A stretch of DNA of 60,714 nucleotides, the filler included, from Perkinsus olseni (Eukaryota): assembly GCA_013115125.1 (NCBI GenBank). It is 2 parts of 2 records of this genome, joined end to end, with 100 filler letters (N's around TTAATTAATTAA, not from the genome) between each part and the next. Parts side by side here need not be neighbours in the genome. Positions count along the whole stretch, not along the records: positions 30,434 to 60,714 come from JABANN010000422.1; 1 more part is not named here. One strand, given 5' to 3'. This document shows positions 36,001 to 42,000 of this stretch, piece by piece (positions within the stretch are counted from its first letter, which is position 1; every line of letters begins with the position of its first letter). A program made the position numbers.

Positions 36001-39000
36001 TGTTTAAAGTTTATGCCTCCAACGGCAGCCTCCTCGTCTTGACCATGGGCACTGGGACTGTTTATCGTTATTCTCCCGAGACTGCCGAGTGGGTCAATCA
36101 ACTCGAAGTCGAAGGGCGGCTCTCGTCATTCGATGTGCGTGCTAGAAAGGACCTCGAGGCTGGTCATGATTTTGTATACGTTTCTGATGACCAGGAGATC
36201 ATCTATATTGTACCCGACGGCACCGTGTCCAGCACGACCGTCCCGGGCGCTCGGCTTTGCCGTCTGGTTCCTGACATTCCTGGCACAGCGTGCGTCGTTT
36301 GCACTGAAGACTCCGGTGATTCGATCTTATTGGTAGACCTCTGCGCTCAAAAGGTGCTCTGTCGCCTGGCCCACGTCAATGCTAGGGTGAGCTTCATGTG
36401 CCTCACTGACGACTGGCGTCTTCTTCTCGGCCACAACTGTGACGGAAATCACGAAGTCTCCATCCTCGAACTACTATAACCCTCCTTCGATGGCTCTGCC
36501 GTATCATCAAACCCTCTGTACTATCAGTTTCATCCCGTTCGTCCTCCGGTTGTCGGTCCACGGTTCACGAAATGCGAACCATGATCGTGCCTCTACTACA
36601 TCCACTTCGCTGTCAACAGTAAAGCAAAGACGTCTGTACTTGCGAGGGATATGCCCAAATGCTGCACTGCGCTCCCTGCTAATATCACAACATATCATCA
36701 TATCCCCGTCAGGCGCAGTAGCCTATCTCAATCGACGGCTTTACATTCTGGTTTGAGTGTTTAGTTGCAACGCTAGTCGATGTAATACAGGCATCCCCAC
36801 TGGTTACTCAACAGTAGTCAATTCAAAACACACATTCATTGACGCATGGACGTGAATTCCAAAGAGCATCCTCGTCACTCATTCTTCTTCTTACTACTCT
36901 TAGTGAGGAGCCCCAAGAACAGAAGCAGCATCGCTGCCTTCACGAAGCGTAAAAGAATCTCATATTCAGCTTCGCGGGTGACGTCCTTACCGCAAACCCA
37001 GTACCACTCAGATTCATCCGCCGGATAGGTCTCGAGACATTTCAAAGTAAAGGACACATTTTCATCGACTTTAAAAGGGCAAAGATACCGCTCGCGCTTG
37101 ATGGTACCCCAGCCGACCACTTCCATCTCACCACGACAATCACGATTAGCGAAAGGTTGACCGTAGGAGTACCGGAGATTGCTGCCTGCGGTGTCGTGAA
37201 GGGTCGTCCACACAGCGGCCATCAGGAACACATAGAGCCACGCGAGGCCAAGAGTGATCATCGTAGCTGGCTTGTTATGCCGCAAAATCGCCAAGAGAGC
37301 GACGACAGATCCGGAGACGACGATGTAGGTTGCCAGTTGCGCTTGGCCGTACAACTCGTCCAATGGATGAAATAACAGCACAAATGGTATTACGAATAAT
37401 ACAGGCATCACGAAGATCGAGCTAAGTATGAAGAGGAGCGGTGTACGATACCTTGTGAAGGCATAGACCAGACCAAGGGAGGCAATCTGCGCGTAGATCC
37501 AGAAGCCAGAAGACAGAGGAACCTGTAGAAAGGAAGAAACATAGACTGGACACGTTTGGGTTCACGAGCTTACACCAGCCCTGCGAGAGAGATACGCAGG
37601 GTCCCCCTCGTGCCAGGTCCACCAGAGAAAATAAGTGCCAGTTGCGTCCAGCAGCTCATAGAGGACATGCCCGATAAGACCTGGAACAGTGATTAACAGG
37701 TGAACGATGAAGCCCCGCTGATCGTTTGGTAGGTACTGTGACAGCACTATTGTCTTGGCAGTCCCAAGAGTCCATGGTTAGAACAGGCCCTCTTTGCGCA
37801 ATATCATCGAAGATCGCAGAGGCTTTCCCTCACCTGCTACGAGGCCGAAACCGACCTTGCTCAGGAAGGTCTCAGATCGCGAAGTGGAGAAGGAGAATGC
37901 AAGCTGGAGGGACATATACTGAAGGGCTCCGTAAAGTCCAAGAAGGGGGTATCTGAATCCTGCACTATGGCCCATCGACCAGGGGCAAAGTAAAGGCAAG
38001 ACTTTACAGCGCGACTATCCTCCCCGTGAGGACGATGCATGCTTGACTGTGTAGAGCATTGTCAATCTGAGAACAGTTGTCGTTTGAGTCGGATATGAGC
38101 GAGCCTTTGTGTTCACTTGAGGATGGAGTGAAGTGAAGAACTCAACGGCGCTGCCACCGAGGAAGCACCCAATCCACAGGGTTACGGGGTTGCTGGAATG
38201 GGACTCTGCAAAGTAGATCAAGTCCATGGAAAAGTGTGTGTGAGTTTGTAGTCCAACGCCGGTTCCGGCTTAGTTAGACTCTTGCCGATGAGCTCAGTTG
38301 GGGACTCTCTGCAGCGTCGACACGCAGTGCAATTAGACAGTTTATCAGAAAAGCATGAAAATGTGAGCCCAGAACGCGGACTTCATCCCTTCGTCAACGA
38401 GCCCACTTCTGTTGACACAAGCATGAGCGAATGTGAGTATGCCGAGGAAGCAGAAGAGAGCCTCACCGGCGACGAAGCAAGGATTCAACCTGTACAGTAA
38501 ATAGCAGCAGAAAACTAAGCATGAACTTACTTCCACATCTCTAAGGGGTTGTATACCGTGAGGGCCCATGTATCCATGAGCGGGTCCGGCAGATTCACAC
38601 TCTTTCCACTAGCAAGAACAGTCGCAGTCATGAAACCTTGGAAGGCAGTTTCTAATGTTAGACGAAACGCCGAAGATGGTACCGCTGAGTGACCGACTCG
38701 AACGCAAGATAGGAAGAGGGTAGGCGAGAAAGCCCCGTGCACTATGTTCAGTCTTCCACGGTTGGACTCCCACCTAGTGATAATGATGATTATAATCGTT
38801 AACAAAGTAGGTTATCCAAGCATCTAAGACTCCTCCTGCAGGACGATCTGGGACGGCCTCCTCAAGAACTCCATGCCCCGGCCAATATCGTTACGAAGTT
38901 TATCCAGGGTCTCAGGTAGCCTGGATTGCTCGAAGGGAGAGAGACTCAGCGAGTGGATCTTGGACACCCCCTCGGGACCGAAGTCACAGTAGTGGGCAAA

Positions 39001-42000
39001 GTAGTTCACACCTTCATACGGCTCGTTGATGTAGGCAGCAGCCTTCGCTGGTTTCCCTTTCATGCCCTGAATCAGGATACCAGCGAATCTGTTTGCAGCA
39101 TAAGCCATCGAAAGTGAGGCTGAGCCCGCTCCCGCAAGAGCATCAACGACCTCGGTGACAGCGTTCTGGACATGATCATCTAGCTTAGCAATGGTAGCAT
39201 CATCAAGTTGGACATACGGAGTGGCGTGGGAGAAGACGGGTAAAATGGCACAGCCACCGTGACCACCGATCACAGGCACATCAACCTTCTCCACATCTTG
39301 GTTAGTAGCCTCAGCATAGAAGGTTCTAGCACGAGTGACGTCCAAGCTCATGAGACCCATAATCTTCCTTTTGTCGAAGACACCTACTTGCTTGTACACC
39401 TCACAGGTGATAGGCACCAGCGCGGTCTCAGGGTTGGACATGATGCACACTAGAGCAGCCGGAGCGTGCTTCGCGAACTTGAAGGAAAGATCTCTCATAA
39501 TCCTGGCGTTCACGTTGAAGAGATCGTCTCTGGTCATGCCTGGCTTCTGGGCGATGCCGGCAGTGACGATGATCATATGAGCACCATCAAGGCAATCAGC
39601 GATCTCGTCGAACCCCTGGTAGCCTGTAACCTTGGCAGGGGTGTTGATGTGGGAGAGATCGGCCACTACACCGGGGACGGGGAAGTGCGCACCGGGCACA
39701 TCATACAGAGCGACTTCGTCGATCTCAGGGTTCATCTTCAATAGAAGGGCCAACGGTCTCCCAATACCACCGGAGGCGCCGATCAGACAGACTTTCATCG
39801 TTCGTCGAAATGAGAATGAACTCCTGAGAAATATCGGTCATGAGCTCCCGCGCAGCCACATATTAGCTGAGTTCAAGGCTCTCGCTCGCCTTCACCGAAC
39901 AAGGTCTGAATGGAAACCGAAAATTCCATCCAGGAAACCTTAACGCTCAGGAACAAAAACCGGACTCTTCGCCCACTTGAACCAGACAGATCGACGAACG
40001 TGCCATCCACCAACGGCTAGAATATCAAGGTGACCAAAGCAAAAATAGTAGCCGACATCGATCGCTTGCGTGCAAAAGTCCTTCGAACATGCGTGCAATG
40101 CTTTGGTTTTCAAAGCTTGAAAATACACTGCCCTGCTACTTTTCTCGGATTTAGCACATAACCCAACAGCGTTGCTGAATCACAATGAAAGGTCACTCAA
40201 CCTTATCGTTAATGCGGGCCTTAGGCCACTTCATCATTCATCACATACATACAACAGTGGGTACATAGCGATATAAAACAAGAGGAAAGGAGGAACAACA
40301 GTAACAGCAGGAGTATAGGCTACAAGAGAACTAAACCTGAAGCCTATTTCTTTAAAATAACATCATCTACTGACTGTCAACACTCTTCATGAAATCAAGT
40401 CCTCTCTCAACATCTTCACGGAGTTTTTCGAGAGTTTCCACCATTCTCTTCTGCTCATGGGGGGTTAAATCCACGAGCTTCTCAACCTTCTCAACACCCT
40501 CAGGTCCAAAAGTGCAGATATGAGCGAAGAACTGTACGTCCTCATAAGGCTCGTTGACGTAAGCACAGGCTGTATGGCTCTCGCCCTTCAAACCGCGGAT
40601 AACTATACCCGCAAACTGGGCAGCTGAGTAAGCCATAGACAGGCTAGCCGACCCAGCACCAGCCAGTGCGTCAACAACCTCAGTAACTGCATTTTGAACA
40701 TGATCATCAAGTTTCTCGATGGTCTCATCATCAAGTTTGACATAAGGAGTTGCTTTAGAGAAGAGAGGGAGGATGGCACAACCACCATGACCACCGACGA
40801 CAGGAACGTCGACCTTTTCCACGTCCATACCAGTGGCTTCAGCATAGAAGGTCCTCGCACGAGTTACATCAAGGGCGGTGATACCTACGAGCTTTCGCGC
40901 GTCGTATACACCGGCCTTCTTGTAGACCTCAGCAGTGATGGGGACGAGGGCGGTCTCGGGGTTCGACAAGATGCAGACAACAGCCTTGGGAGCATACTTG
41001 GCGAAGGCAGTAGCTAAACCACGCATGATACCAGCATTGACGTTGAAGAGATCATCTCTGGACATACCAGGCTTCTGAGCGATACCGGCAGTACACACGA
41101 TAACTTTGGAACCGGTGAGCGCGGCTTCGAGCTCAGTAGGGCCAGCATACCCCTTGACCTTCGCAGGGGAGTTGATGTGAGATGAATCGGCAGCAACACC
41201 ACCAACAGGAACACGGGCTTGCTTGACATCGTACAAGGCCAGCTCAGTGATCATAGGGTTCATCTTCAACAACATGGAAAGAGGCATGCCGATGGCACCG
41301 GAAGCACCAACAAGAGTGACCTTCATGCCGCTAGTAGTCGGGGTAGTAGAACTCATGAGAAGTGGGAAATAATAATTGGAATCAAAGTAACTCAGAAGAG
41401 ACTCATTCCTTCGGCCCATGGATCAGAAGAGAAGAACAACGGAGTCACAAGGCGATGGAGCACAGACCGTGCCACAGCGCGGCGCTACGCCTAAGCTTTG
41501 TGCTAGCGTCGATTCGACTGCTTTGTGCAACCGTGTCGGCAACAACAACGGCCGCGTTCGCTCAGCGAGCCGTCCGTTGGTAAGATGTGATCTTCAGTTC
41601 CGAAATGAGAGGTCCACAACCTCATCGTCACTGCCTGAGGCAGTATCAAAGGGCACGTCAAGAGACATAGCTTAGGCCGCTGCAGCACAGGAATTTTGCA
41701 CGCATGCGCAAAAACACAAAGCGCCCAGGTTCGGTCCGCGGTGAGAACACCTCTGGAGCGGTTCATGGAGTTTTCATATCGACACGAACGTCTTTCCTGA
41801 ACGCGCTGAACCCCTTGATCAGCAAGGCCACCGAAGGATCTTCCGTGAGCTCAGCGTCTATCCGCAGTATTTCCAGAGACGGCAGTAAACCTTCAGTGGC
41901 GAGCGCCGGGAGGACCTTCTGTAGGCCACTTACGGTGACTCCGGAACCTGAGCGCGAGTAGGCTCACCTGTCAAAAAATCTTGGGCTGCTTCCTAGAAGA

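Follow-up and report, generated by a model that had tools for sequence, protein, structure and literature searches.

A Perkinsus-specific offshoot of mitochondrial-type malate dehydrogenase with glutamine at position 102, predicted to act on other 2-oxoacids

Malate dehydrogenase (MDH) has repeatedly given rise to lactate dehydrogenase (LDH), and these switches are a textbook system for the evolution of enzyme specificity. One account counts four such origins, no two with the same residue at position 102 (LDH numbering), and argues that epistasis blocks reuse of a mechanism (PMC4109310, 2014); a later one lists canonical LDH, which carries Gln102, together with the LDHs of Plasmodium, Cryptosporidium, Trichomonas, and Selenomonas (PMC10583557, 2023). 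The former account states that every known MDH carries Arg102, that apicomplexan LDHs combine Lys102 with a 5-6-residue insertion in the specificity loop and Trp107f, and that Escherichia coli MDH engineered to R102Q (Arg81Gln; Nicholls et al. 1992) works poorly on either substrate, its kcat/KM being reduced 10,000-fold (PMC4109310). Here we describe two neighboring genes, gene 1 and gene 2, whose products carry Gln102 on a scaffold of the mitochondrial/E. coli type. They lie in a 60,714-nt stretch of Perkinsus olseni DNA (assembly GCA_013115125.1; positions 30,434-60,714 from JABANN010000422.1), the whole of which we call the window.

Other enzymes derived from MDH are also relevant here. Metchnikovellid microsporidia are described as having a mitochondrial-type MDH in which this Arg is replaced by Tyr in Amphiamblys and by Trp in Metchnikovella, and which is predicted to function as an LDH (PMC6190962, citing Mikhailov et al. 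2017). The aromatic L-2-hydroxyacid dehydrogenase (AHADH) of Trypanosoma cruzi is reported as a cytosolic-MDH-type protein without MDH activity (PMC11461325), and bacterial FrsC is reported to make L-phenyllactate (PMC9299796); we follow PMC11461325 and PMC5054688 in treating AHADH and the trichomonad enzyme TvLDH as cytosolic-MDH-derived. A literature search, which did not cover supplementary files or subscription literature, found no paper on the genes described here, on Perkinsus LDH, or on lactate production by Perkinsus. The safest statement about the Gln-type proteins is that they are an expressed, conserved, Perkinsus-specific offshoot of mitochondrial-type MDH in which the catalytic machinery has been kept and the substrate-contact segments have changed systematically. 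Beyond this, it is somewhat probable, judging from their sequences, that both genes are members of one family, specific to Perkinsus and derived from a single MDH duplication, of cytosolic NAD-dependent L-2-hydroxyacid dehydrogenases.

The gene pair and its descent

Both genes are intronless and occupy uninterrupted open reading frames (ORFs) on the minus strand. Gene 1 (38824..39798) encodes 324 aa plus a stop and opens at its ATG at 39798 straight into MKVCLIGASGG. The gene 2 ORF runs from 40367 to 41419 (350 aa from the first ATG), but its coding sequence, with the start set by a spliced-leader junction, is 40367..41356 (329 aa plus stop), beginning MSSTTPTTSGMKV. Each product contains both Pfam domains of the LDH/MDH superfamily, Ldh_1_N and Ldh_1_C, at 126 and 101 bits for gene 1 (E 1e-36 and 1e-28) and 131 and 112 bits for gene 2, above the gathering cut-offs of 27 and 22.6, respectively. 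A tblastn search of the whole window with gene 1 returned these two genes as the only copies. They are 70% identical across 314 residues, and their DNA likeness is limited to the coding regions (blocks of 71.6% over 556 nt and 65.3% over 170 nt), with no similarity found between the flanks in a nucleotide comparison of the two loci. Across 318 aligned codons, synonymous sites are saturated (pS 0.79, with third-position identity of 38%) and dN is 0.26; the tandem pair is therefore ancient rather than a recent duplication, and both copies are under purifying selection. Since synonymous sites are saturated, we state only that dN is far below dS and give no dN/dS figure.

Sequence, fold, and phylogeny together place gene 1 and gene 2, by descent, in the mitochondrial/E. 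coli-type NAD-MDH subfamily. The solved structures closest to gene 1 are pig mitochondrial MDH (1mld, E 3.9e-82) and human mitochondrial MDH (4wle, E 1.9e-80), followed by glyoxysomal and chloroplast MDHs and then by E. coli-type MDHs (~1e-72); the best solved MDH relatives overall fall between about 1e-82 and 1e-67, and structures named lactate dehydrogenase appear only from ~1e-23 downwards. An AlphaFold2 model of gene 1, computed from a 25-row alignment (A1) and supporting the fold only, has a mean pLDDT of 84.3 and a pTM of 0.86, and Foldseek ranks 1-38 for this model are MDHs of the same subfamily (TM 0.84-0.90). Descent from the canonical LDH clade is contradicted by identities to gene 1 of 44-49% for MDHs (a Salmonella mdh was included in the alignment) versus 26% for two L-LDHs, taken as annotated, that are encoded on plasmids of Lactiplantibacillus plantarum and Bacillus thuringiensis, and by the nesting of the genes in a Perkinsus MDH clade (100/99, UFBoot/SH-aLRT). 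Nor do the data point to descent from cytosolic MDH, as in trichomonad LDH and T. cruzi AHADH: the 18 best solved relatives of gene 1 are mitochondrial, glyoxysomal, chloroplast, or gammaproteobacterial MDHs, and these, like Foldseek ranks 1-38, all belong to the mitochondrial/E. coli-type subfamily. The mitochondrial-type scaffold proposed in a preliminary description of this DNA, made from sequence alone, is thus borne out by the nearest solved structures and the Foldseek ranks.

Among the 120 best homologues, close relatives of gene 1 all come from P. marinus, P. chesapeaki, and P. olseni, including a partial P. olseni sequence (P0004) that is 99% identical to it. At least five lineages of such MDHs occur in Perkinsus. 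The Gln-type ones number three: the gene 1 type; the gene 2 type, which includes P0002, the P. marinus orthologue of gene 2 (92% identical), and P0003 from P. chesapeaki; and a type made up of P0005, P0006, and P0007. Two or more others carry Arg (P0008/P0009/P0014/P0015 and P0010-P0013). The preliminary description had presented a tandem paralog pair, which is correct for the two neighboring genes but too narrow for a clade of three lineages across three Perkinsus species. In a quick maximum-likelihood tree of 42 rows (40 chosen from the 120 hits plus the two window genes), 15 Perkinsus sequences formed one clade (SH-aLRT 99) and the seven Gln-type sequences a sub-clade (SH-aLRT 100) on a stem of 0.37 substitutions/site. 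Because shared active-site states could force the Gln-type sequences together, the 19 clade-defining columns described below were removed, and a careful search still recovered the Gln clade (UFBoot/SH-aLRT 99/98) within the Perkinsus clade (100/99). Gene 1 branches first, before the other two Gln lineages split (97/87), on a branch of its own of 0.53, and this basal position could be a long-branch effect.

Arg changes to Gln twice on the tree, once in Perkinsus and once in P0081, and the Gln form in Perkinsus has a single origin within a Perkinsus-specific MDH radiation. The independent origin suggested in the preliminary description stands as far as the switch to Gln is concerned: the Gln clade is nested among Arg-type Perkinsus paralogs even without the trait columns; Arg-type copies exist elsewhere in P. 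olseni (P0009, P0012/13, and P0014), and orthologues of the Gln-type genes do carry the public name "malate dehydrogenase," as had been supposed. When a profile of the seven Gln-type sequences was run against 1.84 billion cluster representatives, scores dropped from 663 bits (P0006) to 354 bits (Arg-type), so that no member of the Gln-type clade was seen outside Perkinsus in this search. No orthologue of gene 1 above 69% identity from P. marinus or P. chesapeaki was found among the 120 best homologues; it has either been lost in these species or lies outside their protein sets. P0081, an environmental sequence reading AGVPQKPGM, was considered as a second Gln102 lineage and rejected: it is a lone variant, with Arg in 12 of the 12 motif-covering mates of its 90% cluster.

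The sister group of the Perkinsus clade (100/99) is an unnamed environmental Arg-type clade (P0016-P0020, P0022, P0025, and P0030), whose members are mostly 313-335 aa long, mostly without a leader, and on contigs of ~2.4 to 23 kb. The two clades have in common a 4-residue insertion, KQAxxP, after the NAD-binding Asp.

Position 102, co-substitutions, and candidate substrates

The specificity loop reads AGIAQKPGM in both proteins, and the Arg102 of functional MDHs is absent from each: the CAG codon at 39547..39549 (minus strand) encodes Gln84 of gene 1, which aligns with Arg104 of human MDH2 (hMDH2), and the CAG codon at 41075..41077 (minus strand) encodes Gln94 of the 329-aa gene 2 product. 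The Gln of canonical L-LDH is thus present, and it aligns with the Gln of the two annotated L-LDHs. The remaining motifs named in the preliminary description, among them LDVTRA and GGH, likewise proved to be present in both genes at the computed minus-strand coordinates: NPETAL (gene 1 39418..39435, gene 2 40946-40963), which replaces the NPVNST of Arg-type MDHs, with Glu124 gained and Leu127 as in the NPVDIL of LDH; LDVTRARTFY (39316-39345 and 40844-40873); GGHGGCAI in the His195 segment (39244-39267 and 40772-40795); and the helix/loop segment QNAVTEVVDALAGAGSASLSM (39106-39168 and 40634-40696).

Across the 120 best homologues, the loop reads AG[VLMI]PRKPGM in 112 (AGVPRKPGM in 108), AGIAQKPGM in 7, and AGVPQKPGM in 1, and all seven AGIAQKPGM sequences, gene 1 itself counted, are from Perkinsus. 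To count residues at position 102 more widely on this scaffold, the 150 best representatives of 50% clusters were aligned to the family profile: 115 have Arg, 7 have Gln (P0006 and six others), and 28 have another state (Leu 5, Tyr 4, Met 3, Ser 3, Lys 3, Ile 2, Pro 2, gap 2, and Trp, Gly, His, and Glu 1 each). Arg102 is therefore missing in 35 of the 150, several of which also lack the catalytic His or Asp. The earlier claim that Arg is the norm of this clade at position 102 holds for close homologues (112 of 120), but non-Arg states are not rare across the scaffold. The six further Gln102 representatives are P0168, P0184, P0200, P0126, P0144, and P0165; P0184 is named "malate dehydrogenase, mitochondrial" from a mite (Aceria tosichella), and the other five are unnamed singletons. 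Three of them (P0168, P0184, and P0200) are long forms of 493-609 aa reading AG[IL]AQKPGM, and these three plus P0126 (4 of 6) resemble Perkinsus in that Ala replaces the Pro just before the Gln. The rest of the Perkinsus signature (NPET.L, H-G-G-C-A, V214, L221, and S228) was found in none of the six.

The catalytic residues, which we take to be Arg109, Asn140, Asp168, Arg171, and His195 in LDH numbering, correspond to R90, N122, D153, R156, and H180 of gene 1 and are invariant in the alignments; the catalytic and NAD-binding residues, gene 1 D33 included, are invariant in all seven Gln-type sequences. In hMDH2, whose numbering equals that of gene 1 plus 20 downstream of a small insertion, gene 1 H180, D153, R156, R90, N122, and D33 map to His200, Asp173, Arg176, Arg110, Asn142, and Asp57. 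The substrate contacts described for human MDH2 are Arg104, Arg110, Asn142, Arg176, and His200, with Asp173 paired with the His (PMC9496400), and the sole change in gene 1 among these contacts is Arg104 to Gln84.

Around this unchanged set, many neighboring positions are replaced. The alignment used to identify them held 119 sequences, namely gene 1, gene 2, and 117 of the 120 hits, leaving out P0001 (identical to gene 1), P0004 (partial), and P0021 (internal duplication). In 19 of 324 columns, all seven Gln-type sequences share one residue that is less than 5% frequent in the 112 others, and in 11 of these 19 at least 90% of the 112 share one other residue: V82I, P83A, R84Q, V101M, V124E, N125T, T127L, T184A, G214V, K221L, and T228S. 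The 11 columns fall within the active-site loop, the segments of Asn140 and His195, and the helix/loop that comes next. Other fixed changes are N158R, V161Y, A181G, and V183C; a single stretch of gene 1 (39106..39267, minus strand) encodes A181G, V183C, T184A, G214V, K221L, and T228S. Relative to hMDH2, the replacements fall +2 to +5 from Asn142, +1 to +4 from His200, and +2 from Arg176, and then in the helix/loop. Their adjacency in sequence, read with general knowledge of the fold, suggests that the replaced residues line the side-chain pocket. In terms of charge, two positives are lost (R84Q and K221L), an acid is gained (V124E), and an Arg is gained (N158R).

Some of these changes resemble LDH. 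The Gln-type proteins have the LDH state at gene 1 positions 84 (Gln102), 127 (Leu145, the Leu of NPVDIL), and 158 (Arg173). They also share with LDHs a Gly directly behind the catalytic His, and at position 214 their Val stands against Gly in MDHs and Ala in LDHs. For eukaryotic cluster II LDHs, R173 is described as strictly conserved (PMC10583557).

The mechanism that we propose for an L-2-hydroxyacid dehydrogenase family would begin with one duplication of a mitochondrial/E. coli-type MDH that already lacked a presequence. Hydride transfer would be kept through the His195-Asp168 pair, Arg171 on the C1 carboxylate, Arg109, Asn140, and the NAD-binding Asp, and the pocket region that recognizes the substrate side chain would have been rebuilt: Gln replaced Arg102, the residue that holds the C4 carboxylate in oxaloacetate or malate, K221L would remove a second positive charge, V124E would add an acid beside Asn140, and G214V, T127L, V101M, and T184A would make their positions bulkier or more hydrophobic. 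Such a pocket would disfavor a dicarboxylate and accept an uncharged side chain. Oxaloacetate is, on these grounds, probably no longer the preferred substrate. Our best guess is that the enzymes would convert pyruvate to L-lactate, or reduce another small 2-oxo-monocarboxylate, reoxidizing cytosolic NADH; that pyruvate is the main substrate we put at slightly short of probable. The Arg-type paralogs that remain available in Perkinsus for MDH function support the proposal.

Several observations weigh against it. An exact LDH match is seen in only 3 of the 19 clade-defining columns, with four further states compared; K221L loses a Lys that MDHs and LDHs both keep; and Glu124 has no LDH counterpart. 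The substrate-adjacent LDH residue that we take to be Thr246 is also lacking, the aligned residue being Ala227 as in MDHs, with a 3-residue gap in this segment that makes the register less certain. The structural model is weak at residues 38-43, at 221-224 (low confidence), and in the C-terminal tail, and moderate at 81-90. Gln102 by itself would predict loss of MDH activity rather than gain of LDH activity, because R102Q E. coli MDH is poor on both substrates; the co-substitutions in the Perkinsus proteins would then have to be permissive for Gln102, as we infer them to be. Finally, E. coli MDH modified at Arg81 is reported to have shifted to phenylpyruvate, not pyruvate (PMC5054688).

A stronger form of the proposal, possible but rather doubtful, is that the Gln-type proteins are efficient and specific L-LDHs that reached the canonical Gln102 solution on a mitochondrial/E. 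coli-type scaffold. If true, LDH would have arisen independently once more, and for the first time by a repeat of the canonical mechanism, contradicting the view that epistasis bars mechanistic convergence in this superfamily. The ~10-18 co-substitutions (V124E, T127L, N158R, A181G, T184A, G214V, K221L, and others) would then be a natural permissive set, able to turn an E. coli-type MDH into an LDH.

Alternatively, and on balance unlikely, the proteins may be 2-hydroxyacid dehydrogenases whose substrate is not pyruvate. Candidate substrates include aromatic and branched-chain 2-oxoacids (phenylpyruvate, 4-hydroxyphenylpyruvate, and 2-oxoisocaproate), 2-oxobutyrate, hydroxypyruvate/glyoxylate, and 2-oxoglutarate, and the three Gln-type lineages may have specialized on different acids. 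There are precedents among enzymes derived from MDH (T. cruzi AHADH, FrsC, and Arg81-modified E. coli MDH), the pocket changes run mostly towards hydrophobic residues, and Leu221, like Glu124, lacks an LDH counterpart; furthermore, the retention of three anciently split Gln-type lineages suggests more than one job. However, the signature residues are identical in the three lineages, which therefore probably act on one substrate class, and the active-site loop lacks the insertion of FrsC, HicDHs, and apicomplexan LDH. G214V and V101M add bulk and make no room, which by inference favors small substrates.

It is improbable that the Gln-type proteins are still MDHs, with another residue such as the new Arg158 binding the C4 carboxylate or with a less efficient cytosolic MDH being tolerated. 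Their catalytic residues and loop length are MDH-like, the new Arg lies two residues past Arg171 in seven of seven Gln-type sequences, and orthologues are named MDH in public records. Yet Arg102 is described as common to all known MDHs (PMC4109310), a net two positive charges are lost on the catalytic-residue segments (R84Q, K221L, V124E, and N158R), and Arg-type paralogs, likewise without a presequence, are present in the same genomes; the long stem branch and the fixed changes at otherwise invariant MDH positions argue for a change of function. Least probable of all is that these are catalytically weak or non-enzymatic MDH-like proteins (regulatory, structural, or moonlighting) or decaying paralogs, an idea that draws on the crippling effect of R102Q alone in E. 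coli MDH, on the degenerate relatives that exist among the 35 representatives without Arg102 (several also without catalytic His or Asp), and on the long branch of gene 1 (~0.5 substitutions/site), but that fits poorly with catalytic and NAD-binding residues invariant in all seven sequences, dN far below saturated dS, a clade kept in three species and expressed as processed mRNAs, and replaced positions that are fixed and show no drift.

Transcripts, predicted location, and gene neighborhood

About 70% of the sampled words of the 3.3-kb gene stretch occur in many public runs. Four runs from four studies (X1-X4) were compared with the window; all are stored as contigs, and X3 is on record as RNA. 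In all four, gene 1 and gene 2 lie on separate mRNA contigs. The gene 1 mRNA is delimited to 38682..39825 (minus strand) by RNA-library contigs from three studies (X3 38682-39825, X2 38684-39821, and X4 38683-39821), giving untranslated regions of ~23-27 nt at the 5' end and ~140 nt at the 3' end; these transcript ends are weakly indicated, by shared contig ends with no loose end listed. The gene 1 contigs stop at 39821 (X2 and X4) or at 39825 (X3, with 6 unaligned letters) by two AGs in the genomic sequence TCTCAGGAG followed by TTC, and these AGs may be alternative spliced-leader acceptors.

The mature gene 2 mRNA runs from the spliced-leader acceptor AG at 41392-41391 to a poly(A) site at 40180 (40180..41392, minus strand). 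The X3 contig for this gene (40180-41392) has ten unmatched letters, TGAGCCAAGA, beyond 41392; reverse-complemented and joined to the genomic AG, these letters reproduce the final 12 nt of PmaSL1, the spliced leader of P. marinus as printed in PMC3101222. The genome at the acceptor reads CTCTTCTGAG followed by TTAC, a pyrimidine tract and then AG. At the other end, the X4 contig has 23 unmatched T before 40180, corresponding to the poly(A) tail of a minus-strand RNA. X2, in which gene 2 is split into two overlapping contigs, and X4 agree with X3 within 4 nt. With the spliced leader at 41392 and poly(A) at 40180, the gene 2 mRNA is therefore trans-spliced and polyadenylated. This rules out the 350-aa product from the ATG at 41419, since the leader joins at 41392 and the upstream ATG lies outside the mature RNA; the gene 2 end at 41356 given in the preliminary description is the correct start codon, the first ATG of the spliced-leader mRNA.

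The two transcripts are separated by a 354-bp spacer (39826..40179; 568 bp from coding sequence to coding sequence), delimited by the contigs and the nucleotide comparison. Neither the lack of contig cover over this spacer in X2, X3, and X4 nor the depth of the contigs for each gene was used as evidence. Run X1, which carries another organism label (A), also covers the spacer region (39847-40313) at lower contig depth, reflecting either library DNA or an unprocessed precursor spanning both genes.

Neither protein has a mitochondrial presequence or N-terminal extension, as the preliminary description had claimed and as the RNA-defined start of gene 2 confirms, and neither ends in an SKL-like tripeptide. 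All 13 of the 13 other Perkinsus paralogs (Arg-type P0008-P0015 included) also lack a presequence and an SKL-like end and start at the Rossmann fold; this may mean that Perkinsus is without any MDH of this kind in the matrix, or else that the gene models are truncated. With neither signal in either protein, a cytosolic location is predicted for the products of gene 1 and gene 2 by default. This fits with the malate:quinone oxidoreductase described for the mitochondrial tricarboxylic acid cycle of myzozoans (PMC7789003).

No metabolic context emerged from the nine flanking ORFs that were scanned: only PNP_UDP_1, ALG6/ALG8, and DUF7802 fragments were found, and six ORFs had no family. Two exon-sized frames, at 33459-33905 (plus strand; ALG6/ALG8 glycosyltransferase, E 5e-17) and 36875-37561 (minus strand; DUF7802, E 1e-6), are probably parts of intron-containing genes, unlike the intronless dehydrogenase genes. 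The filler region between the joined parts of the window contains two 44-N runs (30334-30377 and 30390-30433), the first inside an open frame without a Pfam match (29395..30381, minus strand) and the second at the start of an open frame (30390-30944, plus strand) with a PNP_UDP_1 phosphorylase-superfamily fragment.

Comparison with known enzymes

The Gln-type proteins have in common with mitochondrial, glyoxysomal, chloroplast, and E. coli-type MDHs (1MLD, 2DFD/4WLE, and 2PWZ) their subfamily, fold, loop length, catalytic set, and NAD-binding Asp, but differ in having Gln for Arg102, ten more near-invariant positions replaced, and no presequence. Engineered R102Q E. coli MDH has the same scaffold and the same substitution at the specificity residue, whereas the Perkinsus proteins carry ~10-18 more fixed changes that may be permissive or may set specificity. 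Canonical L-LDHs are alike at Gln102, Leu145, Arg173, and the Gly after His195, possibly a shared solution for reading an uncharged side chain, but are only 26% identical; unlike them, the Gln-type proteins are MDH-derived, have Ala in place of the Thr that we assigned to position 246, have lost Lys221, and lack an N-terminal arm.

A clade that naturally carries Gln102 on the E. coli/mitochondrial scaffold offers a direct test of the epistasis idea, since it is accompanied by Arg-type sister paralogs in the same genomes and by a short list of fixed co-substitutions, which form a ready mutation set for E. coli MDH. Perkinsus is an economically important parasite of oysters and clams. If the predicted function is correct, at least three genes per Perkinsus genome that are now annotated as "malate dehydrogenase" would need a corrected name, and the enzymes could show how Perkinsus reoxidizes cytosolic NADH in hosts facing hypoxia.

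The convergent LDHs of Plasmodium, Cryptosporidium, Trichomonas vaginalis, and Selenomonas ruminantium are, as described in PMC10583557 and PMC4109310, likewise MDH duplicates changed at position 102 that lost oxaloacetate specificity, as is proposed here for the Gln-type proteins, and apicomplexan LDH also comes from alveolate parasites. However, the parents reported for them are LDH-like or cytosolic MDHs, whereas the Perkinsus parent is of the mitochondrial/E. coli type. Residue 102 is reported as Lys in apicomplexan LDH, with the loop insertion and Trp107f, and as Leu in Trichomonas; Perkinsus has the canonical Gln without an insertion, its loop, AGIAQKPGMTRDDLF, being as long as in Arg-type MDHs. 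The preliminary description had stated that other LDH switches started from other MDH subfamilies, which agrees with what is reported of the trichomonad and apicomplexan parents but is incomplete, because a switch from mitochondrial-type MDH has already been proposed in metchnikovellids (PMC6190962). That case and the present one have a mitochondrial-type parent, a prediction from sequence only, and a parasitic way of life in common, but the replacement residue differs, and the metchnikovellid enzyme is described as the single remaining copy in a reduced genome, whereas Perkinsus has an expanded paralog family beside Arg-type copies.

AHADH and FrsC, as reported, likewise descend from MDH, have lost its activity, and use other 2-oxoacids. 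AHADH, however, is a member of the cytosolic MDH group, and FrsC has an extended specificity loop, in contrast to the MDH-length loop in Perkinsus. Set against these systems, the Perkinsus clade may be either a further origin of LDH that reuses Gln102 with permissive changes or an enzyme for another 2-oxoacid. What was known already is that MDH duplicates lose Arg102; what sets this case apart is the combination of the scaffold, the reuse of Gln, and a defined set of co-substitutions.

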